Assembly: GCA_964383705.1 (NCBI GenBank) | Contig: CAYLHJ010000002.1 | Location: 1,635 to 65,634 of the forward strand | Direction of reading: 5' to 3' | DNA length: 64,000 nt | DNA from: an uncultured Candidatus Saccharibacteria bacterium | GTDB taxonomy: Bacteria; Patescibacteriota; Minisyncoccia; Phycocordibacterales; Zambryskibacteraceae | Shown: positions 6,041 to 49,721 of the stretch, one piece after another | How positions within the stretch are numbered: position 1 is the first letter of the stretch | Layout: each line of letters begins with the position of its first letter | Program-made: the position numbers and the translations under genes | The notes under the pieces: model-generated | The model's input: only the letters and a program-made list of their open reading frames with translations | What the model was told of the DNA's origin: nothing | The model's database searches: none

Positions 6041-8230
6041 ATGAAACTATTAATTGTCGAGTCTCCGGCAAAAGCAAAAACAATTTCAAAATATTTAGAT
6101 GGCGAATACGAAGTAGTCGCAAGTGTTGGACATGTCCGAGATTTACCCAAAAATAATAAAAAAGCCATCGATATTGATGGTGGGTTTACTCCTCGCTACG
6201 AAATAAGTAAAGGAAAAGAAAAAGTTATATCACAAATAAAAAAACTTGCAGCCGCATCTGATGAAGTGGTATTGGCAACCGACCCAGATCGCGAAGGTGA
6301 AGCAATAGCTTGGCATATTGCCCAAAGCGTTGGCCTTAAACACCCAAAAAGAGTTGTTTTTTATGAAATTACAAAAGATGCGGTTACAGAAGCAATAAAA
6401 CACCCTCGAGACATTGATGACAATTTAAAGACGGCCCAAGAAGCTCGCCGAGTTTTAGATCGCCTAGTTGGTTACGATCTGTCTGGTTTGATTTGGAAAA
6501 AAGTTCGCTATGGGCTTTCTGCTGGCCGAGTACAATCCCCCGCCCTTCGTATCATTATGGAACGCGAGAGAGAAATTCGCGCCTTTAAACCAGAAATATT
6601 TTGGACACTGTCTGGATTATTTGAAACTAATGATAAAAATCGCCTCACATTTACCTGCGAATCCGAACCTCATGACAAAAAAGAAGTTGATAGGATTGTG
6701 GCAATAGCAAATAAGGAAGATTGGGAAGTCAAAGACATTAGAGAAACTGAAGTTAAGCGAGCCCCTCGCGCGCCATTCATAACTTCCACGCTTCAACAAG
6801 CGGCAAGTTCTCGTCTCGGATTTTCACCCTCAAGAACAATGTCTATTGCCCAAAAACTTTACGAAGCTGGTCTCATTACATATATGAGAACAGACAGCAC
6901 AAACTTAAGTGCCCAGGCAAAAAAACAAATTGCCGATATTATAAAAAATAAATTTGGCAATGATTTACACGAATCACGTTTCTACGGGGAAAAAAGTAAA
7001 AATGCTCAAGAGGCACACGAAGCAGTAAGACCGTCTGATATAAGAAAAGAAAATGCCGGCCATACCGACGAACAAAAGAAACTCTATAACCTAATTTGGC
7101 AAAGAACCGTGGCTTCACAGATGAAAGATGCGAAAATGCTTCGCACCAAAATTGTCGCAAATGTGATAAATGGGTCTATCCCTGATTTCTCATTAAATGG
7201 GTCACGAATTCTTTTTGATGGCTGGCTTCTTGCTGACCCAAGAGCAAAACAAGATGATGTTGAGGTTCCAAAGATTGCAAAAGGCGCAAAATTGAAATTA
7301 ATTTCAATGAATACTGAGCAAAAGGAAACAACCCCTCCACCACGATATTCAGAAGCCGGACTAGTTAAAGAAATGGAAAAGCGCGGTATCGGCAGACCAT
7401 CAACATACGCTTCAATTATCAAGACCATTGTTGACCGAGGATACGTGGTTAAAGAACAACGTTCACTCATTCCAACCGACACCGGTGATGTTGTTAGTTC
7501 TTTCTTGGAAGACAACTTTACCGAATACATTAGTGACTCATTTACAGCAGAAATGGAAGACAAGCTTGATGACATTGCCTCTGGAAAACGCGAGTATGTA
7601 AAAACATTAAAAGATTTCTACAAACCATTTTTGAAAGATGTAAAATCAAAAGAAAAAACAGAAAAAATCACCAACCTCGGGAAAGCAGACGATAAGTGGA
7701 AGTGCCCAAAATGTAGTGGCAATATGATTATAAAACTCGGCCGGTCGGGCAAATTCCTTTCTTGTGAAAAATTCCCAGATTGTGTTGGGGCCCGAACTAT
7801 TGATGGTGCCGAACTTGAAGGACCGAAAGATACTGGTGAATTATGCCCTGAGTGCGGAAAAGCAAATCTAGTAGAAAGAGATGGAAAATTTGGAAGATTT
7901 ATAGCATGTACCAGATACCCCAAGTGTAAATTTGTAAAAGAAGATCCAGAAGCAAAGAAAAAACTCCTGACTGGTGTAAAGTGTCCAGACTGTAAAGACG
8001 GAGAGTTAATGGAAAGGCGTGGGAGATTTGGAATTTTTTACAGCTGCAGTAATTATCCAAAATGTAAAAATGCTATAAAAGCAAAACCAACAGGAAATAT
8101 CTGCAAACACCAAAGAGATTGGGGGCCTTGCGGAAAACTCATGATGGAAGGAACTAAGACGATACCAGAAAGATGTTCCGATAAAAACTGTCCGAACCAT
8201 AACCCACATAAACTAAAACAGATATCTTGA
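6041..8230 (+). CDS. topA: DNA topoisomerase I
   Basis: TOPRIM N-terminus (MKLLIVESPAKAKTISKYL, GHVRDLP). Active-site region has the catalytic Tyr context (LITYMRTDS). C-terminal C4 zinc ribbons (CPKCSG..CEKFPDC, CPECGK..CTRYPKC, CPDCKDG..CSNYPKC). Confidence 0.95.
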   Translation: MKLLIVESPAKAKTISKYLDGEYEVVASVGHVRDLPKNNKKAIDIDGGFTPRYEISKGKEKVISQIKKLAAASDEVVLATDPDREGEAIAWHIAQSVGLKHPKRVVFYEITKDAVTEAIKHPRDIDDNLKTAQEARRVLDRLVGYDLSGLIWKKVRYGLSAGRVQSPALRIIMEREREIRAFKPEIFWTLSGLFETNDKNRLTFTCESEPHDKKEVDRIVAIANKEDWEVKDIRETEVKRAPRAPFITSTLQQAASSRLGFSPSRTMSIAQKLYEAGLITYMRTDSTNLSAQAKKQIADIIKNKFGNDLHESRFYGEKSKNAQEAHEAVRPSDIRKENAGHTDEQKKLYNLIWQRTVASQMKDAKMLRTKIVANVINGSIPDFSLNGSRILFDGWLLADPRAKQDDVEVPKIAKGAKLKLISMNTEQKETTPPPRYSEAGLVKEMEKRGIGRPSTYASIIKTIVDRGYVVKEQRSLIPTDTGDVVSSFLEDNFTEYISDSFTAEMEDKLDDIASGKREYVKTLKDFYKPFLKDVKSKEKTEKITNLGKADDKWKCPKCSGNMIIKLGRSGKFLSCEKFPDCVGARTIDGAELEGPKDTGELCPECGKANLVERDGKFGRFIACTRYPKCKFVKEDPEAKKKLLTGVKCPDCKDGELMERRGRFGIFYSCSNYPKCKNAIKAKPTGNICKHQRDWGPCGKLMMEGTKTIPERCSDKNCPNHNPHKLKQIS

Positions 8231-11164: not shown

Positions 11165-11248
11165 GCCGGAGTGGTGGAATGGCAGACACGCACGACTCAA
11201 AATCGTGTATCGCAAGATGTGAGGGTTCAAGTCCCTCCTCCGGCACCA
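11165..11248 (+). tRNA. tRNA-Leu (anticodon CAA), CCA encoded
   Basis: Acceptor gccggag/ctccggc. Anticodon loop cuCAAaa. Long variable arm. T-arm ggttcaagtcc. Confidence 0.85.
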
Positions 11249-11335: not shown

Positions 11336-11767
11336 GTGGCCATGTCGACACATCACAAACGACGCAGCCAATTTGCGTCAGTCGTGGTCCCAATCACAAT
11401 GGACCGAAGGGTCATCGTAGTCCGTGACCCTAAGGGTCGTCCCCCTCTCTGGAAATTCCCCGGAGGACATCAAGAATTTGGGGAAACCGCAGAGGAATGC
11501 GGAGTGCGTGAGCTCAAAGAAGAAACCGGGGCAACAACAGAAGTGAGTAACCTCAAGCACATCATCTCGCAAGAGAAAGGTGCCCATACTCGCCGGTTCT
11601 TCCTCGCAGAGGGCGTCTGCACAGAAAACCTCAAGGTAATCGGTGACGGAAATCTCGAGGTGAAAATCGCCCTTCCGCATGAGATTCTCGAGATGTCAGA
11701 TTTCGTCTTCGACCACCTGGCCGCAGCGAGAAACATTCTCGATGAGATTCGATTTGGGATTCTGTAA
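11336..11767 (+). CDS. NUDIX hydrolase (GC-rich gene)
   Basis: Nudix box GGHQEFGETAEECGVRELKEETG. Hand-counted GC is about 55-60%, against about 35% in flanking genes. Sits just downstream of tRNA-Leu. Confidence 0.8.
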   Translation: MAMSTHHKRRSQFASVVVPITMDRRVIVVRDPKGRPPLWKFPGGHQEFGETAEECGVRELKEETGATTEVSNLKHIISQEKGAHTRRFFLAEGVCTENLKVIGDGNLEVKIALPHEILEMSDFVFDHLAAARNILDEIRFGIL

Positions 11768-14139: not shown

Positions 14140-16830
14140 CTAAGAAGTTTTCTCTCTTGATTCTAGAAGATTCTCAACCCAAAGACTTCCCTTTCTCCCT
14201 TTTTTAACTTCAAAGGTAAATTCTCCATTTTTTACATCAGCATATATTGAGCCACCTTTAAGAATGCCTTTGGAAATCATAAGAGATGCTACTGGCGTCA
14301 AAATCTTATTTTGAATCATTCGCTTTAGAGGTCGTGCGCCGTATTGAGGATTGTATCCTTCCTTAACTAAAAATTCCAAAGCATTTGGAGAGACATCGAG
14401 AACAATCTCTTTTTGGAGAAGTCTTTCTTTGACCTGCTCAACTTGGATTTTTACGATATCACGAACAGCTTCGGGTGAAAGAATATTAAATAGGATGATG
14501 TCGTCGAGACGATTCAAAAATTCTGGACGGAAACTTTCTTTTACCGCCTCCATAACCTTTACCTTTGCTTCTTCGTAGTTGTCTTTATCGGCACCTTTTT
14601 CCGCAAAACCAATTTTTTCCATCTTATCAATAAATTGCGCGCCTATATTTGAAGTGAGAATTATGACTGTGTTTTTGAAATTAACCACTCTCCCCTTAGC
14701 ATCTGTCAAACGGCCATTATCAAGCACTTGAAGAAGGATGTTAAATACTTCTGGATGAGCTTTTTCTATTTCGTCAAAAAGAATCACAGAATACGGGCGA
14801 TGACGAACCATTTCTGTAAGATTTCCGCCTTCTTCATGACCCACATATCCTGGAGGAGCACCAATGAGCTTAGAGACAGCATGACGCTCCATAAACTCGG
14901 ACATATCGATTCTTATAAGAGCTTTTTCATCATCAAAAAGAAACTCTGCCAAAGCCTTCGTAAGCTCGGTTTTCCCGACCCCAGTCGGACCCAAAAATAT
15001 AAAAGAACCAATCGGCCGATTAGGGTCAGATATTCCCGCCCTGGATCGCTTTATGGTATCGGAAATTTTCTGAACAGCTTCATCTTGACCAATAATGCGC
15101 TTTTTTAGGAAGTACTCCATTCGACCCAGACGCTCTGCTTCTTCTTCAAGCATTCGAGAAACTGGAATACCTGTCCAACGAGAGACAATGTCAGCAATAT
15201 CTTGCTCAGTAATTTCTTCTTTCAAAATCCTACGAGAACTTTGGAGTCTCTTTAAGCGCTTTGATTTTGCATCCAATTCTTTCTCTAAATTTGGTATTTT
15301 CCCATATCGTATTTCAGCGGCTGTCGATAAATCAGCTCTTATTTCCGCCGCTTCCGCTTCAAGTCTTAAAGATTCCAAATCTTTTTTAATTTTTTTAATA
15401 TCACCGACTGTTTCTTTTTCATTTTTCCACTTTAGTTCAATTTCAGAAGTTTTTTCTTTTAGATCTGCGATGTTTTGATCTATCTCTTTTACCCTAACCT
15501 TTGTCTTTGGGTTCTTTGTAGTTCCTAATTCTTTTTTAAGGGCTTCGCGCTCAATCTCCAACTTCATAATTCTTGAGTGGGTCTCCTCAAGTACTGGGGG
15601 CATATTTTCCAATGAGATTTTTAAATGCGAGGCAGATTCATCAATGAGATCAACGGCCTTATCTGGGAGAAATCTGTCAGTAATATAACGACTCGATAAA
15701 TTAACCGCAGACACTATGGCATCGTCAGTGATTCGAACACCATGATAAAGTTCATATTTTTCTTTAAGTCCACGCAAAATGGTTATTGCATCTTCTTGAG
15801 ATGGCTCATTAACAAAAACCGGTTGGAATCTGCGTGTTAAGGCCGGGTCTTTTTCAATATATTTTTGGTATTCCTTAAGTGTTGTAGCACCAATAGCACG
15901 AAGCTCGCCACGAGCAAGAGCGGGCTTTAGCATATTTGAGGCATCAAGAGAACCTTCAGCAGAGCCGGCACCAACAATGGTGTGTATCTCATCAATAAAT
16001 AAAATGACTTTGCCGTCTGATCTCTCAATTTCTTTCAAGATATTTTTTAAACGCTCTTCAAATTCTCCTCGATATTTTGTGCCCGCAATAAGGAGGCCGA
16101 GATCAAGAGAAACTAGTTCCTTATCACGAAGAGATTCTGGAACATTGCCAGACGCCATCTTTAGAGCAAGACCTTCGACAATTGCGGTCTTTCCAACTCC
16201 GGCTTCTCCGATAAGGATTGGATTGTTTTTTGTGCGTCTCGAAAGTATTTGGATAATTCGAGAAATTTCATTATCACGACCAATAACTGGGTCTAATTTA
16301 TTTTGTGATGCAAGTTTTGTAAGACTTCTCGTGTATTTTAGAAGAGATTTGAGTTTCTTTGGTTCCTTTTCCGAATGAGATTTTGTAACACGAAGTTCTT
16401 CTATAACTCGAGTAACTGTAGCTCGGTCAAGTTTAAAGCGTGCAAGTAAATCCCTGGCAGGACCAGGAACATCAATTGCTGCTAAAAATAAATGCTCAGT
16501 TGAGACAAACTCATCACTTAAGCTCTGCGCAATCTTTGCACTACCTTCAATGATCTGCGCAAGTTCGGGTGTAAGAAAAATCTGATATGAGGGGGCAATA
16601 GTAGAAGAAGATTCTGGGGCCTCAATTGATTCTAAAATAGAATCCGTAAGAAGAATTGTATCTACATCTAACTTATCTAAAATAGAAGCGACCATACTCT
16701 CCTCTTGAACAATTAAAGAAGCGAGTAGATGCATAGGGCTAACATGATTTTGTCCACGTTCTATCGCGAGCTCGTGCGCCTTGCGAATTGCCTCCTTTGC
16801 TTTAGTTGTGAATTGATTAAAGGGGTGCAT
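14140..16830 (-). CDS. clpB: chaperone ClpB (Hsp100 disaggregase)
   Basis: Clp_N repeats. Both AAA modules intact ([15 protein letters not shown] / ILFIDEIH; [19 protein letters not shown]). Long coiled-coil M-domain between them. No ClpP-binding loop noticed. Confidence 0.95.
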
Positions 16831-19053: not shown

Positions 19054-19548
19054 ATGCCTATTTTTGAGACCGAAGTGGTCATTTATATTCTAGTTGGATT
19101 GATGGTTATCCTGATTTCGTGGATTATACGATTAGAAGTAAGGCTTCATAAGATATTGGGTGGGAAAAAAGCACAAAGTGTAGAAAATGTCATAACAAGT
19201 ATCCAAAGCGATATGAAGGATATGCAGTCGTTTAAGTTAGACTCCATAAACTATCTAAAAAATATCGAAGCTCGACTAAAAAGGAGCATTCAGGCAATTG
19301 AGACAATACGTTTTAATCCATTTAAAGGTAGTGGGTCTGGCGGAAATCAAAGCTTCTCTACTGTATTTATGAGTGAAAAAGGTGATGGCGTTGTCGTATC
19401 AAGTCTTTACTCCAGAGACCATATAAGTGTTTTTTCAAAACCTCTGAAAAAATTTTCTTCAGAATTTGAAATGACAGAAGAAGAGCGTGAAGTAACACAG
19501 AAAGCAAAGGAATCTCTCGTTTACCAAAATCAGAATGAAAAAAACTGA
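19054..19548 (+). CDS. DUF4446-like membrane protein
   Basis: N-terminal TM plus a conserved RFNPFKGSGSGGNQSFSTVF..GVVVSSLYSRD block typical of the DUF4446 family. The 3' end overlaps the infB start. Confidence 0.55.
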   Translation: MPIFETEVVIYILVGLMVILISWIIRLEVRLHKILGGKKAQSVENVITSIQSDMKDMQSFKLDSINYLKNIEARLKRSIQAIETIRFNPFKGSGSGGNQSFSTVFMSEKGDGVVVSSLYSRDHISVFSKPLKKFSSEFEMTEEEREVTQKAKESLVYQNQNEKN

Positions 19549-21037
19549 ACATGAAAACCTCATAGAGCGACCACCTATCATCGTAGTCATGGGACATATT
19601 GACCATGGTAAATCAACACTCCTAGATTACATTCGCAAGAGTAACACTGTTCAAAAAGAAGCTGGAGGAATCACTCAACATATTTCTGCCTATGAAGTTA
19701 ACCACAGCGCCAAAGATGGAAAAGTTCATCGGATCACATTTCTTGATACACCAGGTCACGAAGCATTCCAAGCAATGCGAGAGCGCGGAGCCAAGGTTGC
19801 AGATATTGCAATACTTATTGTCTCCGCAGAAGATGGAGTAAAACCACAGACCATTGAGGCGCTCAATGCTATAAAAAAAGATGGTCTACCTTATGTAGTT
19901 GCGATAAGTAAGATTGATAAACCAGAAGCAAACATTGAAAAAACAAAACAAAGCCTCGCCGAAAATGATGTCTTTGTGGAAGGATTTGGTGGTGAAATAC
20001 CCTGTGTTGAGATTTCTGCAAAAAGTGGAGTTGGAATTCCAGAACTACTCGATATGCTCATTCTCGTTTCTGAATTAGAAGAACTTAAAGCAGAATCAAA
20101 TAAACCCGGAAGTGGTGTTGTAATTGAAAGCAATTTAGATACAAAAAAAGGACTAACAGCAACTGCCATAGTAACTGATGGGACCTTAGAGAGGGGCCAA
20201 TTTGCTGTTTCCGGAAAGAGCATCTCCCCTCTACGCTTGATAGAAAACTTTATGGGAGAAAATATCCAAAGCGCTTCTTTCTCAAGCCCAGTTAGAATTA
20301 TTGGGTGGGACACGCCACCTACGGTCGGTTCCAATTTCACTTGCGTAAAGACAAAAAAAGAAGCCCTCCTTCTTGTAGAAAAATTTAATGATAAAAAACC
20401 CGACCAAGCGGATGATCAATTTAAAAGCGAGGCAGAGATTATTCCTATAGTCATAAAAGCTGACACCTCAGGAAGTCTAGACGCTTTGGCTTATGAAATA
20501 AATAAACTGAACAACGACAGAGTAAATACAAAAATAGTCCTCTCTGGTATTGGGCCAATTTCAGAAAATGACATAAAGAATGCAGGAAGTAATAATAACG
20601 CTTTCGTTCTCGGATTTAACACAAAAATTGACCCGAAAGCAGAGAGCTTGGCATTGCGTCTTAATATCCCTGTTTATACTTTCGATATCATATATAAACT
20701 TACTGAATGGTTAGAGGGCGCAATTAAAGATCGCACACCATCACTAGAAGTTGAGGAAGTCTTGGGGGTAGCAAAAATTCTTAAAATCTTTAGCAAAGTA
20801 AAAGACAAACAAATCGTTGGGGGGCGTGTTGAATCAGGAGAAATAAAAATTGGTGAAAATGTTCGAATACTTAGAAGAGATGTGGAAATAAGCCGTGGCA
20901 GAATTAGAGAATTACAAAAACAAAAACAAAAAACTGGAACTGTTTCTCAAGGTGAAGAATTTGGCGCTCAAATCGAAGCAAAATTTGAAATTGCTCCGGG
21001 AGATAAGATAGAGTGTCTAACTCTAGTTAAGAAATAA
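19535..21037 (+). CDS. infB: translation initiation factor IF-2 (short form lacking the N-terminal domains)
   Basis: G domain VVMGHIDHGKSTLLD, DTPGHEAF, SKID. C-terminal beta-barrel domains. Only 500 aa. Confidence 0.92.
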   Translation: MKKTEHENLIERPPIIVVMGHIDHGKSTLLDYIRKSNTVQKEAGGITQHISAYEVNHSAKDGKVHRITFLDTPGHEAFQAMRERGAKVADIAILIVSAEDGVKPQTIEALNAIKKDGLPYVVAISKIDKPEANIEKTKQSLAENDVFVEGFGGEIPCVEISAKSGVGIPELLDMLILVSELEELKAESNKPGSGVVIESNLDTKKGLTATAIVTDGTLERGQFAVSGKSISPLRLIENFMGENIQSASFSSPVRIIGWDTPPTVGSNFTCVKTKKEALLLVEKFNDKKPDQADDQFKSEAEIIPIVIKADTSGSLDALAYEINKLNNDRVNTKIVLSGIGPISENDIKNAGSNNNAFVLGFNTKIDPKAESLALRLNIPVYTFDIIYKLTEWLEGAIKDRTPSLEVEEVLGVAKILKIFSKVKDKQIVGGRVESGEIKIGENVRILRRDVEISRGRIRELQKQKQKTGTVSQGEEFGAQIEAKFEIAPGDKIECLTLVKK

Positions 21038-21051
21038 TTCTTAAAAACTTT

Positions 21052-21453
21052 ATGGACGAAAAGAAAAGGGAAGAAAATACAGCCCAAAAAGCTAGAGATG
21101 TTGCTCAACAGGCTTCTTCCAATAAAGGAAAATCCTATAGAAAAGAAAAGTTGCCAGAATTGCTTAAACACTTGGCCGCTGAGTTTTTTCAAAGAGAGCT
21201 TGATAGCTCATCTCTCGTTACGATAACCAAGGCCGAATTATCACAAAATAAAAAAAGGGTAACAATATTTTTTACCGTGCTACCAGAAGAAAAAGAATTG
21301 ACGATCCTCACTTTTTTTGAAAAAAAAAGAGGGGCTCTTGCCCAATATGTGGATGATCACGCTCGTATCGGACGTATGCCAGAAATAAAATTCTCAGTTG
21401 ATACTGGCGAAAAAAATAGGCAACGAATTGATTTTTTGACCCAAAACGATTAA
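21052..21453 (+). CDS. rbfA: ribosome-binding factor A
   Basis: Immediately downstream of infB, in the conserved gene order. KH-like RbfA fold signature (RIGRMPEIKF). Confidence 0.75.
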   Translation: MDEKKREENTAQKARDVAQQASSNKGKSYRKEKLPELLKHLAAEFFQRELDSSSLVTITKAELSQNKKRVTIFFTVLPEEKELTILTFFEKKRGALAQYVDDHARIGRMPEIKFSVDTGEKNRQRIDFLTQND

Positions 21454-21506
21454 AATTCCTTAGCAGGCTAAGAAATAATTCTTATCCTTGTTAATACCGA
21501 GGTTGT

Positions 21507-21578
21507 GGCCACGTAGACAAGTGGTAAGTCGAGAGTCTGCAAAACTCTTATGCGCGAGTTCGATTCTCGCCGTGGCCT
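21507..21578 (+). tRNA. tRNA-Cys (anticodon GCA)
   Basis: Acceptor ggccacg/cgtggcc. Anticodon loop cuGCAaa. T-arm gcgagttcgattctcgc. Short D-stem. Confidence 0.8.
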
Positions 21579-21592
21579 CCGGGAATATATAT

Positions 21593-21674
21593 GCCCGAGT
21601 GGCGGAACTGGTATACGCGCGCGACTTAAAATCGCGTCCCGTAAGGGATGTGGGTTCGATTCCCACCTCGGGCA
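21593..21674 (+). tRNA. tRNA-Leu (anticodon TAA)
   Basis: Acceptor gcccgag/ctcgggc. Anticodon loop cuUAAaa. Long variable arm tcccgtaagggat. T-arm gtgggttcgattcccac. Confidence 0.85.
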
Positions 21675-21739
21675 CAGAGATCAAATTATCATAGCTGAAT
21701 TTGGTGGGCATAGAGTTAAATAGTAAAGTAATATAATAT

Positions 21740-21812
21740 GCGCCCATAGCTCAGTTGGTAGAGCTGCTCCCTCTTAAGGAGAAGGTCGCAGGTTCGAATC
21801 CTGCTGGGCGCA
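21740..21812 (+). tRNA. tRNA-Lys (anticodon CTT)
   Basis: Acceptor gcgccca/tgggcgc. D-arm gctcagttggtagagc. Anticodon loop cuCUUaa. T-arm gcaggttcgaatcctgc. Confidence 0.85.
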
Positions 21813-21827
21813 CAGTGCGAAATATAT

Positions 21828-21910
21828 GGGCACGTGGCGGAATTGGTATACGCGCTAGTCTTAGGAACTAGTTCCTTAACGGATTGGGAGTTCGAGTCTC
21901 CCCGTGCCCA
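21828..21910 (+). tRNA. tRNA-Leu (anticodon TAG)
   Basis: Acceptor gggcacg/cgtgccc. Anticodon stem ctagt/actag with loop cuUAGga. Long variable arm. T-arm gggagttcgagtctccc. Confidence 0.85.
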
Positions 21911-21994
21911 CAAAAAAGCGAAAAGGTTTATTGACTTTTTAATTATCTGTGATAAAATGTTGTCGGAAAAGTTCTCTCGAATTCAAGATTCTCA

Positions 21995-23005
21995 TTGGAG
22001 GTTCAAATGATGCTCATGATTATAGGCTTTTGGGAGAAAGCGTTCCTTCTCATGGTCGGAACAATCTCCCTCGGCACAGTAGTGGCAATCATTGCATGGT
22101 TTGGCTTCGATAGGCTTGTCCTAAAGATAGCAGACTATGACAAGTGGTGGTCCATCTTTCGGAGACTCCCACTTGAAGGCACTGTAGCATATATTCTGAA
22201 GGGCGGACCTGGCGGTCCAGTCCGCAAAGTCATCCACTCTGTACCGGGCTGGAGTATCAATGAAGATGGGATTTTTATTCCCATCCCAGAACCGGAGGGC
22301 GGATATCTCCGCAGAGAGCTCGGAGTGGTGCTAGTCTGGCCAAATAGCAAGTTCCATACCAGGACCCGACACTATGAGGTACTGGAGCAAGTGCAGGGCC
22401 AGCATGGCGCGGTGATGGTCCCAAAAACGCGCGAGGGTTCTGAATTCTTTTTTCAAACGGTGATCAGCATTGAAATCGTTGCTGCGGAAGATAAGGGTAA
22501 CTTCCCAATCAACGCTAAGGCAACTTTTACAATGCGGATTATCCAACCAATCACAGCAGAATTCACTTCTGGTAAGCCCGAAGTCCAAGCAATGTCTGCC
22601 GCTCGAGTCATGGCAAGAGAATACATCGGCTCGCATCACTTCGATGAGCTTCGAGGTAAAGTCCACCCTGTTCCAGACAATAGCTTGATTGAATTGTTTG
22701 GAATAGAAATCATTGCCATGCGACTCGAAGAATTCAATCCGGTAGATCCGGATAGTGACTATGCCAAGGCAAATCGATTGAAGGAAATCAATCGACTCAA
22801 TGCCGACGCAGCAGGAGAAAAAGCTCGGGAGATAGAGGTGCTAAGCAAGGCTGAAGAAGCAAGAGTCCTCCGGGTTTATGGAGCTAAGGCGGGAGTCAGG
22901 GATGGTGGTTTAATCGCCATGGCCGAGGCCATCGAGTCTTCTAAACCTTCGACCTTGGTAGTTGGGAATTTCCCAACATCAATTCCCCTTCCACCGATTA
23001 AGTAG
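21995..23005 (+). CDS. SPFH/band-7-like membrane protein (GC-rich gene)
   Basis: N-terminal TM, a central beta-rich region, and a C-terminal Ala/Glu-rich coiled-coil (EINRLNADAAGEKAREIEVLSKAEEARVLRVYGAKAG). GC is about 50%, clearly above surrounding genes. The family call is tentative. Confidence 0.45.
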   Translation: MEVQMMLMIIGFWEKAFLLMVGTISLGTVVAIIAWFGFDRLVLKIADYDKWWSIFRRLPLEGTVAYILKGGPGGPVRKVIHSVPGWSINEDGIFIPIPEPEGGYLRRELGVVLVWPNSKFHTRTRHYEVLEQVQGQHGAVMVPKTREGSEFFFQTVISIEIVAAEDKGNFPINAKATFTMRIIQPITAEFTSGKPEVQAMSAARVMAREYIGSHHFDELRGKVHPVPDNSLIELFGIEIIAMRLEEFNPVDPDSDYAKANRLKEINRLNADAAGEKAREIEVLSKAEEARVLRVYGAKAGVRDGGLIAMAEAIESSKPSTLVVGNFPTSIPLPPIK

Positions 23006-23127
23006 CTCTGCCCGCACCAAAACAGTATGAGCCCAGCAACGAATTAGTTGCTGGGCTTTTCCATTTGACAGATTGTATTATTTTATGATATAGTTCGGGA
23101 AGATCAGTTCTGTTAAATTTCCTTTTC

Positions 23128-24378
23128 TTGGAGGCGCCCATGTGGGCAACAATTCGACGATACCCGAAGCGGCTGGTTTTCTTTATCGCTATCTCAATAG
23201 TTCCAATCTTCTTCTTGCTTTTCTACACCCTCTCCCACTACTCAAAGAACGAGAGTGATGTGGTGCTGGAGAGACAAGATTCAGTAAACGTAGTTACGGC
23301 CCCAACCACAGAAAGAGAGCATGAGGGGAGCGCGTCTGGATTCTTTATCCCGCTGATCCTCATTGGCGTCGCAGGCTCTATATGGAGAATGGTAAAGGGG
23401 CGTTGGCCTCATATCCTGACAATGGCGATTTTGGCTAGCGGGATTCTTTTCAACTGGCTTTGGTGGTCAATCCATCCGGCAAGTTGGCAGGAATGGCGTA
23501 ACTCGTCTAGCTTCTGGCCACTGATTTTCTCCATGTTTATCGTCGCCTTTCTCAGTGGAGAAAGTAACCCCGTTGCGAAATTCGCCCGCGGCGCTCTTCT
23601 TGGGCTCGTGATTGTGAGCATCGCCATTGGGGTAACGAGCTATGCGAGAAAAAGTTGGTGTTGGGCAGCTTCAGATGAGGCGAAAGCCCAACTCTGCGCA
23701 ACTACTTATAGTTCAACATCGACCGTCTCGCTTCCTGCGAAGTTTGACGGCCATGCTCGGGATTACTTCAATGGACCCGAAAGAGACTCCGTCCTCGCCT
23801 ACTTCCACGACATCCCCGTACTTGCAGATATTGCTGGAGCCGAATCCGGTTTCAGGCAATACAACAATGGTTCTCCTGACAGGTCCTGTAGCACTGTCTT
23901 GAGAAACAAGAACACGAATGGTACGGAAGACATGGGGGTAATGCAGATCAACGAGGTTCACTGGGGAAAAGCCAAAGAACTCGGGCATGATCTCTGCTTG
24001 CTCAAGGGAAATATGGCTTTCGCCAGACACCTTTATGAGCAAGATGGCACCCAGCCTTGGGAAGCGTCGAGTCCTGTTTGGCGAGATCACTATGTGTCGG
24101 TTCCAAGATCCACCTCATCCACCCAAATAGCGGTAGGGGGCGGAAATACCGTAACTGTTATTGCTCCAAGTGATAGCAGTTGGAGCACCCCCATCGACAC
24201 AAAGGGTCGCAGGACAAGATGTGAAGGAATTCAACACAAGAAATACCGCGCCCTGATTGATAGGAAAAGAGAATTCCAAATCGAACCTGGCGCCTTTAAG
24301 AATGTTGGCCAGTTCCGCTTAATCCAATTCCGTTCAGACAGCTCAGAAGCAACTGAGGTTTCCTGCACGGTCGGATAG
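23128..24378 (+). CDS. polytopic membrane protein with C-terminal lytic transglycosylase (SLT/lysozyme-like) domain (GC-rich gene)
   Basis: About five N-terminal TM helices. Then an SLT-like motif set (AESGFRQYN...GVMQINEVHW...AFARHLYE). GC-rich like the preceding gene. A hairpin terminator follows. Confidence 0.6.
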   Translation: MEAPMWATIRRYPKRLVFFIAISIVPIFFLLFYTLSHYSKNESDVVLERQDSVNVVTAPTTEREHEGSASGFFIPLILIGVAGSIWRMVKGRWPHILTMAILASGILFNWLWWSIHPASWQEWRNSSSFWPLIFSMFIVAFLSGESNPVAKFARGALLGLVIVSIAIGVTSYARKSWCWAASDEAKAQLCATTYSSTSTVSLPAKFDGHARDYFNGPERDSVLAYFHDIPVLADIAGAESGFRQYNNGSPDRSCSTVLRNKNTNGTEDMGVMQINEVHWGKAKELGHDLCLLKGNMAFARHLYEQDGTQPWEASSPVWRDHYVSVPRSTSSTQIAVGGGNTVTVIAPSDSSWSTPIDTKGRRTRCEGIQHKKYRALIDRKREFQIEPGAFKNVGQFRLIQFRSDSSEATEVSCTVG

Positions 24379-24398
24379 CGGAAGATCGATAGCACCCC

Positions 24399-24432
24399 GG
24401 GCGCAGACAAGCAATATGTCTGCGCCCTTTTT
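24399..24432 (+). terminator. rho-independent terminator
   Basis: Hairpin gggcgcagacaagcaatatgtctgcgccc followed by ttttt. Confidence 0.75.
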
Positions 24433-24439
24433 CATAAAC

Positions 24440-24475
24440 AAAATAGCGCGAGAATATTTCTCGCGCTATTTTGAA
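24440..24475 (-). terminator. rho-independent terminator for the minus-strand pilin-like gene array
   Basis: Perfect inverted repeat aaatagcgcgaga / tctcgcgctattt with a U-tract on the minus strand. Convergent with the previous terminator. Confidence 0.6.
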
Positions 24476-24486
24476 TCCCTCAATTA

Positions 24487-24756
24487 TTAATTAAGTGGAT
24501 ATATATTTGTGGAAAAACCGAACGAATTGAGCACGAAACGAATAATACCAAAAACTGAAACCATAATGAGCATGCCAACAAGACCCCAAACAATAGATTT
24601 CTTACCCTCTTCCCTTGCTTTATCCTCGCCGGAATTCATAACAAACTTAAAAATACCGTAGAGAAATACAACAAGTGCCACGCTAAACAAAAGTATAATT
24701 ATCGGATTAAGGATAAACTCATTAACCTTGTTGATAAGCGCAACAATTGGAGACAT
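24487..24756 (-). CDS. VirB2/TrbC-like (T4SS-pilin-like) small two-helix membrane protein, paralog 1
   Basis: 89 aa with two hydrophobic helices separated by the charged loop NSGEDKAREEGKKSIVWG. Shares the Gx(E/D)Exx(K/R)xG(K/R)xxxxWG core with the five upstream paralogs. Confidence 0.6.
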   Translation of the reverse strand: MSPIVALINKVNEFILNPIIILLFSVALVVFLYGIFKFVMNSGEDKAREEGKKSIVWGLVGMLIMVSVFGIIRFVLNSFGFSTNIYPLN

Positions 24757-24780
24757 GTAAATCTAATCTAACTTGATTAA

Positions 24781-25080
24781 CTAGAAACCAGGAACGTATG
24801 GAGTTTCGGAAATCTGAGATTGTCGGATGCCGAAGATATTCCCGAGGAAAGTAGTAAGACCCCAAACAGTTACCATGACGAAAAGGGCTACAACCCCCCA
24901 AATCATAATTCGTCTTCCACGTTCCTTGGCCTCCTCATTTCCGGCAGCAAGAATGAATGTTGCCAATCCCCAGAAAAAGAATAGCAATGCGAGACCAGCA
25001 ACTATAGGTGTTGCTGTTTCAACGATATTGCCAATTTGTGTTATGAGCGTATTGAAATATGTAAAACCCGGAGTATTCAT
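24781..25080 (-). CDS. VirB2/TrbC-like (T4SS-pilin-like) small membrane protein, paralog 2
   Basis: LALLFFFWGLATFILAAGNEEAKERGRRIMIWGVVALFVMVTVWGL: two TM helices around an acidic/basic loop. Confidence 0.6.
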   Translation of the reverse strand: MNTPGFTYFNTLITQIGNIVETATPIVAGLALLFFFWGLATFILAAGNEEAKERGRRIMIWGVVALFVMVTVWGLTTFLGNIFGIRQSQISETPYVPGF

Positions 25081-25209
25081 CGTATTAAGTTTAATTTAAC
25101 TTATTAATAATCCTTATAATCAATTGAGTACATTAATGATAATAACTCAAAAAACCTCTAAAAACAACGGACTGGGGACAATTTTTCTCCCCCACCCCCA
25201 CACAAAACC

Positions 25210-25536
25210 CTAATTAACAGGAAGACTATATATAGGAGAACCGCCCAGAAAAACATTTTGAAGAAGTTCAACAATTCCCCAAATAGAAATCATTACAAAA
25301 AGGGCTACAACCCCCCATATTAAAAGCCTTCTGCCGTCCTTAACCGCCTCCTCACTTCCCGCCGCCAATATAAATTTGGCTATACCCCAAAAAAATAGAA
25401 GAAGAGCAACACCAATCGTGAGAGGTATAAGACCTTTCAGAATTGAAGCAATGGTTCCAATAATATTCTGGATACTTGCCGTAGCGGCAAAAGAAAATAT
25501 TGGGAAAATAAATAAAATCAAAATTTTCTTTTTCAT
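25210..25536 (-). CDS. VirB2/TrbC-like (T4SS-pilin-like) small membrane protein, paralog 3 (with signal peptide)
   Basis: N-terminal signal-like MKKKILILFIFPIFSFAATAS, then LLLFFWGIAKFILAAGSEEAVKDGRRLLIWGVVALFVMISIWGI. Confidence 0.6.
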   Translation of the reverse strand: MKKKILILFIFPIFSFAATASIQNIIGTIASILKGLIPLTIGVALLLFFWGIAKFILAAGSEEAVKDGRRLLIWGVVALFVMISIWGIVELLQNVFLGGSPIYSLPVN

Positions 25537-25961
25537 GGATTTGTATCAGGTAGTTGGGGTAGCCCTATCGGACCAGAACCAAAAATACTGTTTGAAAGAA
25601 CTTGGACTATACCCCAGATAGAAACTGCAACAAAAATCCCAACTGCTCCCCAGAGCATAAGATTTTTTCCTTCCTTTTGAGCATCTTCACTTCCCCCCGC
25701 TTGAATAAACTTCACTAGACCCCAAAAGAAAACAACTACTGTTGCACCAACTAATACTGGAAATAAAGAACTCGTTATATTTGTAACAATACAAATAAAA
25801 TCACCGAAATTTTGTGGAGGACCAGACGGGGCGCCAGAAAAAACTCCAGCTGGATTTGAAACGCATGCAGCATAAATCGTATTTGGCGAAAAAATCAAAC
25901 CAACCATAAAAATAATTACAAGAAAATGAAACAAAATATTTTTTAAAAAATAGATCCTCAT
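25533..25961 (-). CDS. VirB2/TrbC-like (T4SS-pilin-like) small membrane protein, paralog 4
   Basis: Signal/TM N-terminus, then VVVFFWGLVKFIQAGGSEDAQKEGKNLMLWGAVGIFVAVSIWGI. A 4-nt overlap (ATGA) with paralog 3 suggests an operon. Confidence 0.6.
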   Translation of the reverse strand: MRIYFLKNILFHFLVIIFMVGLIFSPNTIYAACVSNPAGVFSGAPSGPPQNFGDFICIVTNITSSLFPVLVGATVVVFFWGLVKFIQAGGSEDAQKEGKNLMLWGAVGIFVAVSIWGIVQVLSNSIFGSGPIGLPQLPDTNP

Positions 25962-26365
25962 GTTAGCTGGTCAATAGTGGCCTTTATCGCAGCAGAAATC
26001 GCCCAAGCACCCAAAAGCACCGCTGTACCTATGGCCGCGTACAGAAAAGCTCTCTTTGCTGTTTCAAGCTTAGTCTCATTTCCTTGCGCCGTTACAAAAA
26101 GAAAACCGGCGTAAATAATATATATTACGGCAATAACGCCGCCTAAAGGCAAGATGACAGTATTAATTATCAAATCAATGAATTCATACAGACTATCAGC
26201 ACCAGAAGCTAAAGGATTTGGTATTGATATGCTATATGACGGGTCATTTCCACCAATATCACCATCATCATTACCACCAATATCATGATTGCTAGCAAAA
26301 ACAGTGAAAGAGAGAGAAAGGAAGGTTATAAAAGATAGGACAGCTATATAACGAAATCGTTTCAT
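25958..26365 (-). CDS. VirB2/TrbC-like small membrane protein, divergent paralog 5
   Basis: Signal peptide. A Gly/Asp-rich stretch (HDIGGNDDGDIGGNDPS). Then two helices around the loop QGNETKLETAKRAF. 4-nt overlap with paralog 4. Confidence 0.5.
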   Translation of the reverse strand: MKRFRYIAVLSFITFLSLSFTVFASNHDIGGNDDGDIGGNDPSYSISIPNPLASGADSLYEFIDLIINTVILPLGGVIAVIYIIYAGFLFVTAQGNETKLETAKRAFLYAAIGTAVLLGAWAISAAIKATIDQLT

Positions 26366-26387
26366 ATTTGTAATATTATATCATTCA

Positions 26388-26795
26388 TTAAAAACCAATA
26401 AGAGTGAAACCTTGACCGGGCAATAATAAGGCTCTCACAATTGTATTTACGATCAGCCAAGCTGATAGAACAACAACAAAGCCAATTCCGGCTTTTGTAA
26501 AAATAGATTTAGCCTTTTTTGCCTGCCCCTCATCCCCCGCTGAAGTAAGATAAAGGAAACCAGCCCAAACAAAAGAAATTGCAACCAATGCGGTAGACAT
26601 GATAATAAGAAAATTTATTATCCTTACACCAAGTTCTACCAAGTCATTAAAATCACAATCATTGGGATCAACAGCCGGATCACAAAAAATTAGATAGCCG
26701 GGTTCTTGTGGTGAATCGGCCGAAAAAACTGGTAACGCAATAAAAAAGATTGAGGTGATAACTACAAATAAAATCTTATTTGAATGACTTAACAT
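26388..26795 (-). CDS. VirB2/TrbC-like small membrane protein, divergent paralog 6
   Basis: Signal peptide. A Cys/Asp-containing segment (FCDPAVDPNDCDFND). Two helices around SAGDEGQAKKAKSIF. Confidence 0.5.
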   Translation of the reverse strand: MLSHSNKILFVVITSIFFIALPVFSADSPQEPGYLIFCDPAVDPNDCDFNDLVELGVRIINFLIIMSTALVAISFVWAGFLYLTSAGDEGQAKKAKSIFTKAGIGFVVVLSAWLIVNTIVRALLLPGQGFTLIGF

Positions 26796-26797: not shown

Positions 26798-28087
26798 TTA
26801 TTTGAAATTATTAACCATCACTTGCAATTTTTGTTCTGTTTGGCTCAATGCTTCTTCGGTTCTTAATCTCCCCGAAGTTATTGACTCAACCATTTCTTTA
26901 AAAAGAATATTTGTCTCATTTATATCTGGATCAAGCCAACCACGAGACCATAATGCGCTCTCAAAGAAAAGAGTGAGAAAAGGATCTGTGGTCCCTCTGG
27001 ATATCACGTCCTTACGTATTGGTGGCAAACCAGTCAACTTTATTAATTCCGATATGGCCTCGGGCGAAGAAAGTCCGGCTATAACTCTAAGTGCACCAGC
27101 GATATTTTTGGAGGTCTTAGTGATTGCAAGTCCTTGCAAATCTCCATATGTGATTTTAGCACTACCAGTACGAGATTGAGGAATAGCAGAAACATCAAAA
27201 TTTAAATTAGGATTTTTAAGTTTCAAAGTATTTAGCTCGGAAGCGAAACCAAAATAAACCGCAAGATCTCCAGAAAGAAAAGCTGTTTGTGAATCTGGGA
27301 GAGACCTATTCCAAGAATAATGCGTCTTCGAAGGGTTAGAAAATTCTGTATAGAAATTTAATGCTGATAATGCTGGTGGAATTGCATAACCAAAATTATC
27401 TAAAATAGAAGCGCGATACCCAGTATCAGTTTTTGATATTATTGGGCTCCCTGCTTGAAAAATGAGCGTTGATATAATCTCTTTTGCATTATTTATATTT
27501 TGAAATTCACCAAAAGCGAGCGCTGACCGAGTTAGATTAAGAGCATTGTCTTTCTCTGTGAATTTCTTAGAAAATGCATAAAATTCATCCCAATACTTTG
27601 GTGGCGTAGCAGAGCCTAGAGAGAAAAGAATGTCCCGATTCCAATACATCACCAATGGATCAATTAGAATCGGAAAAGCAAATATTCCTTCCTTGTTCAA
27701 AAATAGTTCGCCTTCTTGGATAAATGTATCCCTAAACGTACGCTCAGAATAACTTTCAAAAGGCACTATAAATAATTTATTTTTTTGTTTCAGTAAATTA
27801 TCTTCTCCGATAAAGACAACATCTGGCCCAACTCCTGCGGCAATAGCCTCCACAAAATCCCTATCAAAATCACTTTTTGCCTTATATACATAGCGTATAG
27901 TAGTATTCTTATCTTTTGAAAGAGGCAATCGAGAATACATTGAAGAAAAATCTGTCTCTGATATTGTTCCCCAAACCAAAATATTTGCTCGCTCGCTTTG
28001 ATTTGGTCTTGCAAAAGCGAAAAGTAAGACGCCAATAATAATAAAAACTCCAAAAATGCCTGTCAGTATAATTTGAAATTTAGACAT
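26798..28087 (-). CDS. membrane-anchored extracellular solute-binding protein (ABC-type SBP family 1-like), no cognate permease adjacent
   Basis: N-terminal TM anchor. SBP_bac_1-like blocks (ILVWGT, AAGVGPDVVFIGEDNL, MYWNRDILF, PPKYWDEFYAFSKKF). The flanking genes are the pilin-like array and a methyltransferase, not ABC permease or ATPase genes. Confidence 0.6.
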   Translation of the reverse strand: MSKFQIILTGIFGVFIIIGVLLFAFARPNQSERANILVWGTISETDFSSMYSRLPLSKDKNTTIRYVYKAKSDFDRDFVEAIAAGVGPDVVFIGEDNLLKQKNKLFIVPFESYSERTFRDTFIQEGELFLNKEGIFAFPILIDPLVMYWNRDILFSLGSATPPKYWDEFYAFSKKFTEKDNALNLTRSALAFGEFQNINNAKEIISTLIFQAGSPIISKTDTGYRASILDNFGYAIPPALSALNFYTEFSNPSKTHYSWNRSLPDSQTAFLSGDLAVYFGFASELNTLKLKNPNLNFDVSAIPQSRTGSAKITYGDLQGLAITKTSKNIAGALRVIAGLSSPEAISELIKLTGLPPIRKDVISRGTTDPFLTLFFESALWSRGWLDPDINETNILFKEMVESITSGRLRTEEALSQTEQKLQVMVNNFK

Positions 28088-32175: not shown

Positions 32176-33415
32176 TATGACTATATATTAGCATATGCAA
32201 ATGATCTCTGCCAGCCAATTATAGACCTATACAAAGCCATATTATATAGCTTTGTGGTTTGTGGATAAGATAATGTGTTGACAAAATTTGAGGACATGTT
32301 ATGATGGGAGTAGAAGCACATCGCAGTTTATCTATAATGAACCGCCTCCACATTGATGATTCACATCATCTTAGGGGCGGCGAAGGATCCGCAAGCACAA
32401 GCTCTGCGGAAACGACGAAGAGGAGAGGAGGTTTCATGACCCGGCTCGCCCGCGGCAGCCCCCATCAGGGGGGTGACATCAAGAGGACCCATTCGACCGC
32501 CGACCAGACCAACGACACCAACATCACCGGCTGATCTTCGGCCGGCTCGGGGTGAGAGCATGAACAAGATTGGGGAAGAGCCCCAACCCATGACCTCACC
32601 CCTCCCTTTCCCCCATAGAGCCCGATGGGCCCGTGCGGGAAAATTCGCGGATTGTCGACGATGGTCCGCGATGCTCGTCCACTTCTCGCCGATGAATCGG
32701 CCAGAACTTCACCTGCGGAGATCGAGCCATGCTCAGCAAGCTGGAAACCGTGCGGGGGGAGCCCGCGGAGATCTGGACGCCGACCGAGTGAGCTGACAAC
32801 ACCGTTCCTGCGCCAAAAGCGTGAGAAAGGAAGATGGCCACGAGGCACCCAGTCTAGCCACTGGGCTCGTCGATAAGATACTTTACTAACTTTCCGCCCA
32901 ACGAAAGCCCCTTCTATTTTGATCGATTCCCTAGTCCCGTATGAATGGGCCGGGTGTCGCAAAACAGCTAAACGCCGAAAATCCTGGTGATTAATAATCA
33001 CCGGATAGTCGCCAAACAGCTAGAAGGCAGATGGCGAAAACTTGGTGGGCTCTTCGCCCCTCGGTGGTGTCTACGAAACACTACCTCAAGTATTCGCGGT
33101 CATGGCATATGGCGGAAAAAGCCACCATTAAAGAAAACGGCGAGAAAAACAGAGAGTACAAACGCTCCGAGGCGCGTCATAAGCCTCGGGAACAGGCACC
33201 CAGTGTGGTGCGCTTCCAAAGAAGGGTCTTTGACCCTTGCCCCCACGACAACCGTTGTGGGGGCTTTCTTTATATATAGACAAATACAGATCTTTGCGGT
33301 AGACTTTCGCTTGTCTTTAAATTTTTAGAAGAGACATTAATTATACGACGCAAGAGCTAATCCCACTTAGGAGAATAGTAGAAACGGCAACAGGTGGACC
33401 TCGGCGGGCAAAAAA

Positions 33416-49693: not shown

Positions 49694-49721
49694 CTTAAAG
49701 AAAACTTAATCTAAAAATACC

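Follow-up and report, generated by a model that had tools for sequence, protein, structure and literature searches.

The GC-rich patch at positions 21995-24435 of the 64,000-nucleotide stretch analysed here (hereafter the window), which comes from an assembly named as an uncultured Candidatus Saccharibacteria bacterium (GCA_964383705.1, contig CAYLHJ010000002.1), is probably not a foreign insertion but a positionally conserved, recombination-exchanged hypervariable envelope module of Zambryskibacteria-like Patescibacteria, which are ultra-small bacteria. The module consists of two genes, ORF1 and ORF2, predicted to encode an SPFH-family membrane protein and a polytopic membrane protein with a lysozyme-like domain, and it lies between a cluster of four tRNA genes and a convergent array of VirB2-like pilin genes. 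A preliminary description of this DNA had read the patch as a horizontally acquired island inserted behind the tRNAs, possibly an old and partly decayed integration, with the actinobacterial host of an epibiont as one conceivable high-GC donor. Three lines of evidence lead us to a different reading: the position of the module in related genomes, the direct observation of allele exchange between two of them, and a GC excess that recurs in every lineage.

All of the related loci, given L numbers below, were retrieved through homologues of ORF1 or ORF2. In L006/L007 the gene order is that of the window, gene for gene: DUF4446, IF2, RbfA, tRNA-Cys/Leu(taa)/Lys(ctt)/Leu(tag), the ORF1 homologue, the ORF2 homologue, a convergent T4SS_pilin array, SBP, a methyltransferase, GyrA, a small gene and Lactamase_B_3, with identities to the window proteins of 82-83% for GyrA and 62% for IF2. 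The block that runs from IF2 and RbfA through the tRNAs, the SPFH gene, its partner gene and the pilin array to SBP, the methyltransferase and GyrA is also found in L015, L018 and L019, and parts of it are seen in L001/L005, L008-L012, L013 (a named Ca. Zambryskibacteria assembly of about 50% GC) and L016. In L006, L015 and L019 the full set of four tRNAs lies ahead of the SPFH gene; the terminal tRNAs of the cluster are visible in L007, L018 and L008, and the 3' end of the tRNA-Leu in L011. The cluster of L016 is rearranged (Gly, Leu(tag), Lys inverted). The convergent pilin-array neighbourhood is likewise present in L001, L007, L013, L015, L018 and L019. Every related locus retrieved behind the tRNA cluster has the module at the same site, L017 standing apart with its module in another context, after type IV pilus genes. 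An inserted or decayed element is difficult to reconcile with best homologues that reside in related low-GC genomes, in identical gene order and behind the same four tRNAs.

Within this conserved block divergence is greatest in the module. When the window is compared with L006/7, identity is 38-82% for flanking proteins (GyrA 82%, IF2 62%, SBP 50%), against 28-32% for ORF1 and 30% for ORF2. IF2, RbfA and SBP all recover the window and L006/7 as sisters, yet ORF1 is no closer to its sister (32%) than to L013, L015 and L016 (31-34%). The two module genes also disagree with each other: L008 has the closest ORF1 (48-51%) yet the most distant ORF2 (24.5%), and L001/L005 have the closest ORF2 (38%), together with a protein at the SPFH position that is Band_7-positive and not alignable with ORF1 by BLASTP.

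The clearest evidence of how such divergence arises comes from L007 and L018. DNA identity between the two is 97.5% toward the tRNAs and 96.2-97.7% over the stretch that starts at the 3' end of the SPFH gene and takes in the methyltransferase and gyrA genes, and the encoded SBP and methyltransferase are 100% and 99.4% identical. The SPFH gene bodies, by contrast, give no blastn alignment and their proteins are 50.5% identical, with breakpoints 4 nucleotides into the gene and about 69 nucleotides ahead of its stop codon. The SPFH gene body has been swapped for a diverged allele between two near-identical genomes. Smaller diverged patches stand out from a background identity of 0.98-0.99 between the two loci: the N-terminal part of the ORF2 homologue (L007 2064-2313) is at 0.83 and two pilin genes (L007 5064-5563) are at 0.87-0.88, which suggests mosaic recombination or diversifying selection over the whole envelope locus. 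Horizontal exchange does shape this locus, as the preliminary description supposed, but by homologous allele replacement within the clade and not by insertion of foreign DNA. The locus would diverge mainly through homologous replacement of whole gene bodies by diverged Patescibacteria alleles, a step demonstrated for the SPFH gene in this one near-identical pair. Gene transfer detected in Patescibacteria is mostly from Patescibacteria to Patescibacteria (PMC12455944).

The compositional discontinuity itself is confirmed. GC content is 0.495 (49.5%) at 21995-24435 against 0.390 (39.0%) in the rest of the window, where no other 2441-nucleotide window exceeds 0.457, and this agrees with the initial estimate of about 50%, above the flanks. 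In sliding windows it runs at 0.46-0.525 across about 22000-24400 and is back down to 0.36-0.41 beyond, so the reported drop in the pilin-like array holds as well. Compared with 46 other genes of the window (GC 0.379 ± 0.023; GC at third codon positions, GC3, 0.295 ± 0.037), ORF1 has a GC of 0.492 (z 5.0) and a GC3 of 0.502 (z 5.6), and ORF2 values of 0.504 (z 5.5) and 0.540 (z 6.7). Because GC3 is raised in both genes, amino-acid composition alone, which had been put forward beforehand as a possible explanation, is not the cause of the excess. Codon usage in the module has moved broadly toward C- and G-ending codons, as shown by the codon shares of TTC (0.64 vs 0.23 in the rest), ATC (0.51 vs 0.18), AAG (0.62 vs 0.25) and CTC (0.35 vs 0.12). 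GC at second codon positions (GC2) is 0.475 in ORF2 against a window mean of 0.37, and Arg/(Arg+Lys) is 0.62 against 0.40, so that the excess touches all three codon positions plus the Arg/Lys ratio. A cause in RNA structure was considered; folding of the ORF1 mRNA gave z = -3.2, which we did not judge compelling. An assembly chimera is unlikely, because of two Logan contigs from other Sequence Read Archive runs that are 100% identical to the window, one covers 19262-26298 and bridges both GC junctions. The patch is not unique in the window, as two other genes downstream of tRNAs and one non-coding stretch are equally GC-rich.

The features of the locus, in window coordinates, are these:

21507-21911, plus strand: cluster of four tRNA genes, Cys(gca)/Leu(taa)/Lys(ctt)/Leu(tag) (this and the next four lines by ARAGORN and Rfam)
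21507-21580, plus strand: tRNA-Cys(gca)
21593-21675, plus strand: tRNA-Leu(taa)
21740-21813, plus strand: tRNA-Lys(ctt)
21828-21911, plus strand: tRNA-Leu(tag)
21931-21958, plus strand: putative sigma-70-type promoter of ORF1, TTGACT-16 nt-TAAAAT with TG extended -10 (consensus scan, 10/12 matches)
21998-22002, plus strand: ribosome-binding site of ORF1, GGAGG (from the sequence)
22007-23005, plus strand: ORF1, 332 amino acids, SPFH/stomatin-type by prediction (open reading frame list; start at the ATG after GGAGG)
23029-23058, plus strand: intrinsic terminator hairpin after ORF1, then a T-run (12-bp stem, 7 GC pairs)
23065-23094, plus strand: putative sigma-70-type promoter of ORF2, TTGACA-18 nt-TATAGT with TG extended -10 (11/12 matches)
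23130-23134, plus strand: ribosome-binding site of ORF2, GGAGG (from the sequence)
23140-24378, plus strand: ORF2, 412 amino acids, polytopic with a predicted lysozyme-family domain (open reading frame list; start at the ATG after GGAGG)
24399-24427, plus strand: stem of the intrinsic terminator of ORF2, with a T-run to 24432 (11-bp stem, 8 GC pairs)
24444-24473, no strand given: second hairpin (AATAGCGCGAGAATATTTCTCGCGCTATT), from inspection of the sequence alone and absent from the terminator scan
24487-26795, minus strand: six VirB2-like 'T4SS_pilin' genes, convergent with the module (PF18895, tblastn)
26798-28087: SBP gene past the pilin array, followed by the methyltransferase gene and gyrA

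Much of this layout had been described correctly at the outset: the Cys, Leu(TAA), Lys(CTT), Leu(TAG) cluster just upstream, the terminator ending at 24432, and the orientation of both module genes on the strand opposite to the downstream array. ORF1 begins 95 nucleotides past the end of tRNA-Leu(tag), and the ORF2 terminator forms the 3' border of the GC-rich patch. A TTGACT...TGTGATA(n)AAT-like element is also found upstream of the homologous genes in L008, L011 and L007/L018, and its counterpart at 21931-21958 may well act as a promoter. Possessing its own putative promoter and terminator, ORF2 would form a transcription unit separate from ORF1. The hairpin at 24444-24473 probably terminates the convergent pilin genes. 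Pfam PF18895 matches the members of the pilin array with E values of 1e-7 to 4e-12 (three of the six were scanned), and the other three were assigned because tblastn matched them to pilin genes in L001 and L007.

What might explain the GC excess? Module genes and flanking genes were pooled for each of ten lineages, two of which, L006/7 and L018, are near-identical genomes. The values, as GC/GC3, are:

Window: module 0.499/0.523, flanks 0.380/0.284
L006/7: module 0.478/0.498, flanks 0.398/0.290
L018: module 0.468/0.493, flanks 0.403/0.313
L008: module 0.503/0.484, flanks 0.379/0.260
L001/5: module 0.503/0.508, flanks 0.453/0.406
L015: module 0.528/0.657, flanks 0.461/0.479
L016: module 0.513/0.573, flanks 0.412/0.347
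L019: module 0.548/0.572, flanks 0.448/0.441
L017 (after type IV pilus genes): module 0.530/0.588, flanks 0.397/0.272
L013: module 0.552/0.665, flanks 0.506/0.583

The module is richer in GC than its flanks in all ten lineages, by +0.046 to +0.134 in GC and by +0.08 to +0.32 in GC3, and the smallest GC excess (+0.046) is that of the GC-richest genome, L013. Module GC3 follows flank GC3 only partly (slope 0.48, r = 0.77). An offset that is kept over orthologous positions at 28-38% protein identity, and that is still present, if reduced, in a genome of about 50% GC, is not explained as the leftover signature of a donor. The excess would instead be a property of the exchanged gene pool, maintained in every host genome. 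We favour a recombination-linked cause, either GC-biased gene conversion at a hot spot of recombination or net import from GC-richer members of the clade, or both, because the shift extends to every codon position and to the Arg/Lys ratio, because allele exchange is directly observed between L007 and L018, and because FtsZ, ClpB, IF2 and GyrA have ordinary GC3.

Translational selection could account for part of the same pattern. The module and the two other GC-rich genes downstream of tRNAs would then be native, very highly expressed genes that have adopted efficiently decoded codons. ORF1 and ORF2 do have near-consensus extended -10 promoters, GGAGG ribosome-binding sites and strong terminators; the C-ending two-fold codons are preferred (TTC, ATC, AAC, TAC, GAC), as is AAG, with a tRNA-Lys(ctt) gene just upstream; all four GC-rich genes of the window are alike in codon usage; and the excess is present in every lineage and partly tracks host GC3. 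Genes expected to be well expressed, however, such as those for FtsZ, ClpB, IF2 and GyrA, have an ordinary GC3 of 0.28-0.31, and codon selection offers no explanation for the shifts in GC at first and second codon positions and in Arg/(Arg+Lys). Strong codon selection is, moreover, not expected in slow-growing organisms with reduced genomes. We regard translational selection as a serious rival, though a rather unlikely explanation. A single ancient acquisition by the ancestor of the clade from a GC-richer donor, followed by vertical descent and incomplete amelioration, is less probable still. It would fit the conserved position over the clade and an excess that is found in all lineages and is smallest in the GC-richest, L013. 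At 28-38% protein identity, however, synonymous sites are saturated and should have come to host composition, whereas the GC3 offset still stands in every lineage, and the gene-body swap between genomes about 97% identical, together with the discordance of ORF1 and ORF2, speaks for ongoing exchange and not for purely vertical descent.

The least credible explanation, to which we assign very little weight, is site-specific integration at tRNA-Leu(tag), recent or decayed, of DNA that would come from a high-GC source, for instance an actinobacterial host, a phage or an integrative element. The composition jump directly 3' of the tRNA cluster speaks for it, as does the position of the two other GC-rich window genes behind tRNAs. 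Like tRNA-linked genomic islands, the module has atypical GC and codon usage starting within 100 nucleotides of a tRNA 3' end; unlike them, it measures only 2.4 kb, has no integrase or att sites, and lies at the same site, with the same compositional offset, in the relatives seen. Deviant composition and location at a tRNA 3' end are thus two of five island hallmarks, and the other three are missing, namely an integrase, att repeats and, among loci found through the module's own proteins, a sporadic distribution. Neither of the only two ORFs has a recombinase match in Pfam, NCBIfam or PHROGs. The window holds no direct repeat flanking the module and no second tRNA-Leu(tag) 3' end even at three mismatches, neither near 24400-24480, where a search for such a repeat had been suggested, nor anywhere else, and the earlier remark that no integrase or att repeat was visible stands. 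A scan of IMG/VR viral contigs with the ORF2 alignment gave no relative. The ORF1 family is tiny (79 clusters) and contains organism names from the candidate phyla radiation only, and a module GC3 of about 0.5 is far from the values of Actinobacteria, which lie far above it. With named ORF1-family members confined to Ca. Zambryskibacteria and Parcubacteria and a GC excess in every relative, the proposed high-GC or actinobacterial donor finds no support. A prophage lysis cassette or an anti-phage defence system was also considered and rejected, there being no PHROG or PADLOC match and no relative in that scan of viral contigs.

One relative does bear an apparent trace of integration at this tRNA. 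In L011 the last 22 nucleotides of tRNA-Leu(tag) (CGAGTCTCCTCCCCAGCACAAA) are perfectly repeated, at 10-31 and 146-167, with a spacing of 136 nucleotides; the pair lies between the tRNA and the SPFH gene and has the appearance of an att-type scar. The duplication indicates that this tRNA has served some element as an integration site in one lineage or more, but the module of L011 lies outside the duplicated segment.

The structural model of ORF1 firmly places it among the SPFH-family membrane proteins, although its sequence has diverged beyond the reach of the Band_7 model. ORF1 has no match to Pfam Band_7 (PF01145) or to any other Pfam model at E <= 0.1, and neither ORF1 nor ORF2 has a match above threshold in Pfam, NCBIfam, PHROGs or PADLOC. 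The AlphaFold2 model of ORF1, built from an alignment of 46 sequences (ORF1 and 45 relatives), reaches a pLDDT of 92.4. It has an N-terminal transmembrane helix at about residues 10-42 (a hydrophobic segment by hydropathy, modelled as a long helix), an SPFH core at about 50-250, a coiled-coil helix at 251-295 and a short C-terminal tail. In Foldseek searches of the PDB it matches HflK/C (2.4e-07), stomatin (9e-07) and QmcA (9e-07), and also prohibitin, flotillin, erlin and the vault shoulder domain, with E values of 2e-07 to 1e-04 overall; phmmer against the PDB finds Pyrococcus (PH) stomatin weakly (E = 0.045). The SPFH/band-7-like character initially ascribed to ORF1 is borne out by the model and these matches. 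In word-indexed searches of 5.8 billion proteins ORF1 appears orphan-like: even with the 46-sequence profile, the yield was limited to the two module proteins, a single ORF2 relative and a single member of the ORF1 family. The 79 ORF1-family clusters emerged only from a full HMMER scan of 1.84 billion protein representatives; nearly all are metagenomic singletons, and the organism names among them are limited to Candidatus Zambryskibacteria and a Parcubacteria group bacterium. The L005 protein at the ORF1 position passes Band_7 with 25.8 bits (cut-off 23.6); BLASTP finds nothing between it and ORF1, and hhalign gives a probability of 69% for the C-terminal part only. The two proteins belong to a common fold family, from which orthology does not follow.

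ORF2 begins with a hydrophobic region at about residues 8-170 (nucleotides 23161-23649), which includes a conserved NWLWWS...NSSSFWP motif, and continues with a predicted lysozyme-family (EtgA/IagB/VirB1-like) domain at about residues 213-319 (23776-24096) and a C-terminal beta domain at about residues 336-411 (24145-24372). The hydropathy scan flagged three hydrophobic segments at its threshold, and about five can be read from the sequence; together with a positively charged N-terminus (RR..KR), these would place the C-terminal part of the protein, including the lysozyme domain, outside the cytoplasm. Glu235-Ser236 (GAA at 23842-23844) and G266-x-x-Q269 are invariant in six ORF2-family members of 24-38% identity. 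A profile of these six finds EtgA, the muramidase of a type III secretion system (T3SS), as its best match in the PDB (E = 0.004), followed by c-type lysozymes. NCBIfam IagB matches ORF2 with E = 0.014 (15 bits against a cut-off of 208) and Pfam SLT with E = 0.018, the latter in one of the six members, and the tblastn matches are to a plasmid-borne Pantoea gene annotated as a lytic transglycosylase (2e-5) and to the phage lysozyme lyZ1 (1e-6), the phage match spanning only 25% of ORF2. The matches are weak but consistent, and together with the invariant Glu-Ser they point to a lysozyme/SLT-like domain in a polytopic protein, much as first described; peptidoglycan cleavage is its predicted activity. 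In fold searches the C-terminal beta domain weakly resembles small cupin-like sandwiches (E about 1e-3), and the search was uninformative for the lysozyme domain; a PDB profile search with the beta domain returned nothing relevant. An NfeD-like role for ORF2 was considered and set aside, as there is no NfeD Pfam match and the beta domain is weakly cupin-like. Scans of genome contigs and of metagenome contigs with the ORF2 alignment gave a single locus each.

How do these proteins compare with known systems? Each would be a new and strongly diverged addition to a known superfamily, ORF1 to the SPFH and ORF2 to the lysozyme-like/GH23-type proteins. Modelled ORF1 is reminiscent of the E. coli SPFH scaffolds HflK/C-FtsH and QmcA-YbbJ (PDB 7vhq, 7wi3, 8z5g) in its transmembrane helix, core, coiled coil and C-terminal strand, with Foldseek E values of 2e-07 to 1e-05 to HflK/C and QmcA chains, and its gene likewise adjoins one for a polytopic membrane partner. 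Unlike these scaffolds, ORF1 fails Band_7, its partner is not a homologue of NfeD or FtsH by the tests run, the two genes appear to be separate transcription units with the SPFH gene first, and the SPFH gene is hypervariable and exchanged between near-identical genomes. We know of no description of hypervariability or exchange as a property of SPFH genes. ORF2 has the catalytic Glu-Ser motif and the G-(V/I)-(M/F)-Q-I motif of EtgA (T3SS), IagB, VirB1, TraG of pIP501 and PrgK of pCF10. It resembles the VirB1-like enzymes of monoderm conjugation systems (TraG, PrgK) in its apparent membrane anchoring and in lying beside VirB2-like pilin genes. It differs from them in having about five transmembrane segments instead of one and a further beta domain at the C-terminus, and in lacking CHAP and LytM domains. 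The window has no nearby gene for VirB4, VirB6 or VirD4.

The six-gene PF18895 array that adjoins the module is of the VirB2-like kind treated in the passages on arrays of PMC12102498, where such arrays are described as widespread in Patescibacteria and essential in the one species tested, with 441 arrays of 2-11 genes and highly variable paralogues. Compared with the arrays in those passages, that of the window lies far from any ATPase gene of a type IV secretion system. The same passages report that most array-bearing genomes lack a recognisable VirB1, for which, as their authors suggest, other glycosidases may substitute; they describe no membrane lysozyme-like gene beside the arrays, and the term SPFH does not occur in the text of PMC12102498. 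Our literature search found no paper describing a module of an SPFH protein and a lysozyme-like protein. The module can also be compared with hypervariable surface loci, such as those for O-antigen or capsule and pilin or flagellin alleles, which it resembles in its fixed position, in alleles more diverged than their flanks, in sharp breakpoints at gene borders and in an atypical composition common to all alleles. It differs in being GC-rich instead of AT-rich, and in encoding what appear to be an SPFH scaffold and a wall hydrolase instead of a surface polymer or a filament subunit.

By analogy with HflK/C, QmcA and stomatin, ORF1 could oligomerise into a membrane cage or microdomain, and by analogy with VirB1, EtgA and IagB, which serve secretion machines, ORF2 could cut peptidoglycan locally. 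The wall opening made by ORF2 might then serve a structure built from the neighbouring VirB2-like pilins, a role with which the scarcity of VirB1 in array-bearing genomes, as given in the passages on arrays of PMC12102498, would be in keeping.

Several points weigh against the reading of the patch as a conserved, exchanged envelope module with these functions. Retrieval of the relatives by way of ORF1 or ORF2 homologues leaves any genome with an empty site, close relatives included, invisible to this analysis. The ten lineages are not all independent, L006/7 and L018 being near-identical. The data of this analysis do not separate GC-biased conversion, GC-rich donors and codon selection, and a very high level of expression would also be compatible with the near-consensus promoters, the strong ribosome-binding sites and the preference for C-ending codons. 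The functional tie between the module and the pilin array is a matter of adjacency alone, and no pilin array lies beside the module in L008 and L017. In L013, L015 and L016 the partner gene has no lysozyme domain, and its product aligns with ORF2 at an hhalign probability of 2.6%, the resemblance being confined to the level of motifs in the alignment. The lysozyme-domain matches of ORF2 itself fall below the threshold of every curated model, and its AlphaFold2 model, from a two-sequence alignment, is poor (pLDDT 46), with the lysozyme-like domain at 23-41 and only the C-terminal beta domain reaching 70-80.

Other GC-rich units of the window deserve description. A NUDIX-domain gene of 143 amino acids (11336-11767, plus strand) lies 88 nucleotides past tRNA-Leu(caa) (11165-11248); it has a GC of 0.525 and a GC3 of 0.56 (z about 7), a promoter-like element of its own (TTGACA type) and a strong terminator hairpin. 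A gene for a 285-amino-acid protein (48654-49511, minus strand; GC 0.54, GC3 0.56) begins 108 nucleotides downstream of co-oriented tRNA-Ser(cga)/tRNA-Val(gac) (49620-49811, minus strand), and again has its own promoter-like element and terminator hairpin; the protein has no Pfam match, an N-terminal signal-like segment and a C-terminal hydrophobic segment. Both genes show the C/G-ending codon usage of the module, and all three genes of the window that directly follow co-oriented tRNAs are GC-rich. The non-coding stretch lies at about 32250-33350, between a Lactamase_B_3-like gene and an S1-domain gene, and comprises about 1 kb at 52-62% GC (flanks about 37%). It contains only overlapping ORFs on both strands, none of them convincing, has no Pfam match and no Rfam match at E <= 1, and ends in a terminator-like hairpin with a U-run at about 33235-33275 (plus strand). 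It folds much more stably than shuffled controls (z = -6.9 on the plus strand and -7.2 on the minus strand), and it is a candidate for a large structured non-coding RNA. It shows no sequence similarity to any retrieved relative locus; L007 is also GC-rich (0.53) at the syntenic place. Two long minus-strand genes, one of 1439 amino acids (44127-48446) with DUF11, DUF642 and SpaA-like domains of the kind that surface proteins or adhesins typically carry and one of 1127 amino acids (51599-54982), have normal composition except for a high GC2.

Some relatives have features of their own. Upstream of the SPFH gene of L016, positions 6132-7858 hold an apparent second, split SPFH paralogue (218 + 125 amino acids, with Ns present) and a 194-amino-acid transmembrane protein with a C-terminal beta domain. 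In L015, whose genome is about 46% GC, two ORFs of 152 and 171 amino acids at 14217-15315, between the methyltransferase gene and gyrA, have a GC of 0.64 and 0.58, a GC3 of 0.90 and 0.82 and no Pfam match; this could be a foreign high-GC insert or GC-rich non-coding sequence. L001/L004 belong to a metagenome-assembled genome (GCA_964489565.1) titled 'uncultured Candidatus Saccharibacteria bacterium', which has window-like gene order and pilins and SBP 43-61% identical to those of the window; because the named members of the ORF1 family are Zambryskibacteria and Parcubacteria, the Saccharibacteria label of this assembly may be loose.

Taken further, and only tentatively, the module could be viewed as part of a small pool of independently transcribed cassettes, perhaps including the NUDIX and secreted-protein genes, which are kept GC-rich in every host through a recombination-linked process and exchanged between lineages one gene body at a time, with recombination anchored in conserved promoter, tRNA and 3'-tail sequences. 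The SPFH and lysozyme-like pair would then fill the place of a missing accessory, opening the wall and acting as organiser for the VirB2-like arrays that mediate the epibiotic lifestyle, with alleles turning over according to host or phage specificity. At this locus the textbook island signature of a GC jump beside tRNAs misleads, and programs that call islands from composition would get it wrong. The analysis puts forward two fast-evolving and uncharacterised envelope proteins as candidate partners of the VirB2-like pilin arrays of Patescibacteria, and the persistent GC excess, present in 10/10 lineages over a host GC of 38-51%, makes the locus a compact natural setting in which to weigh GC-biased gene conversion against codon selection in reduced genomes.

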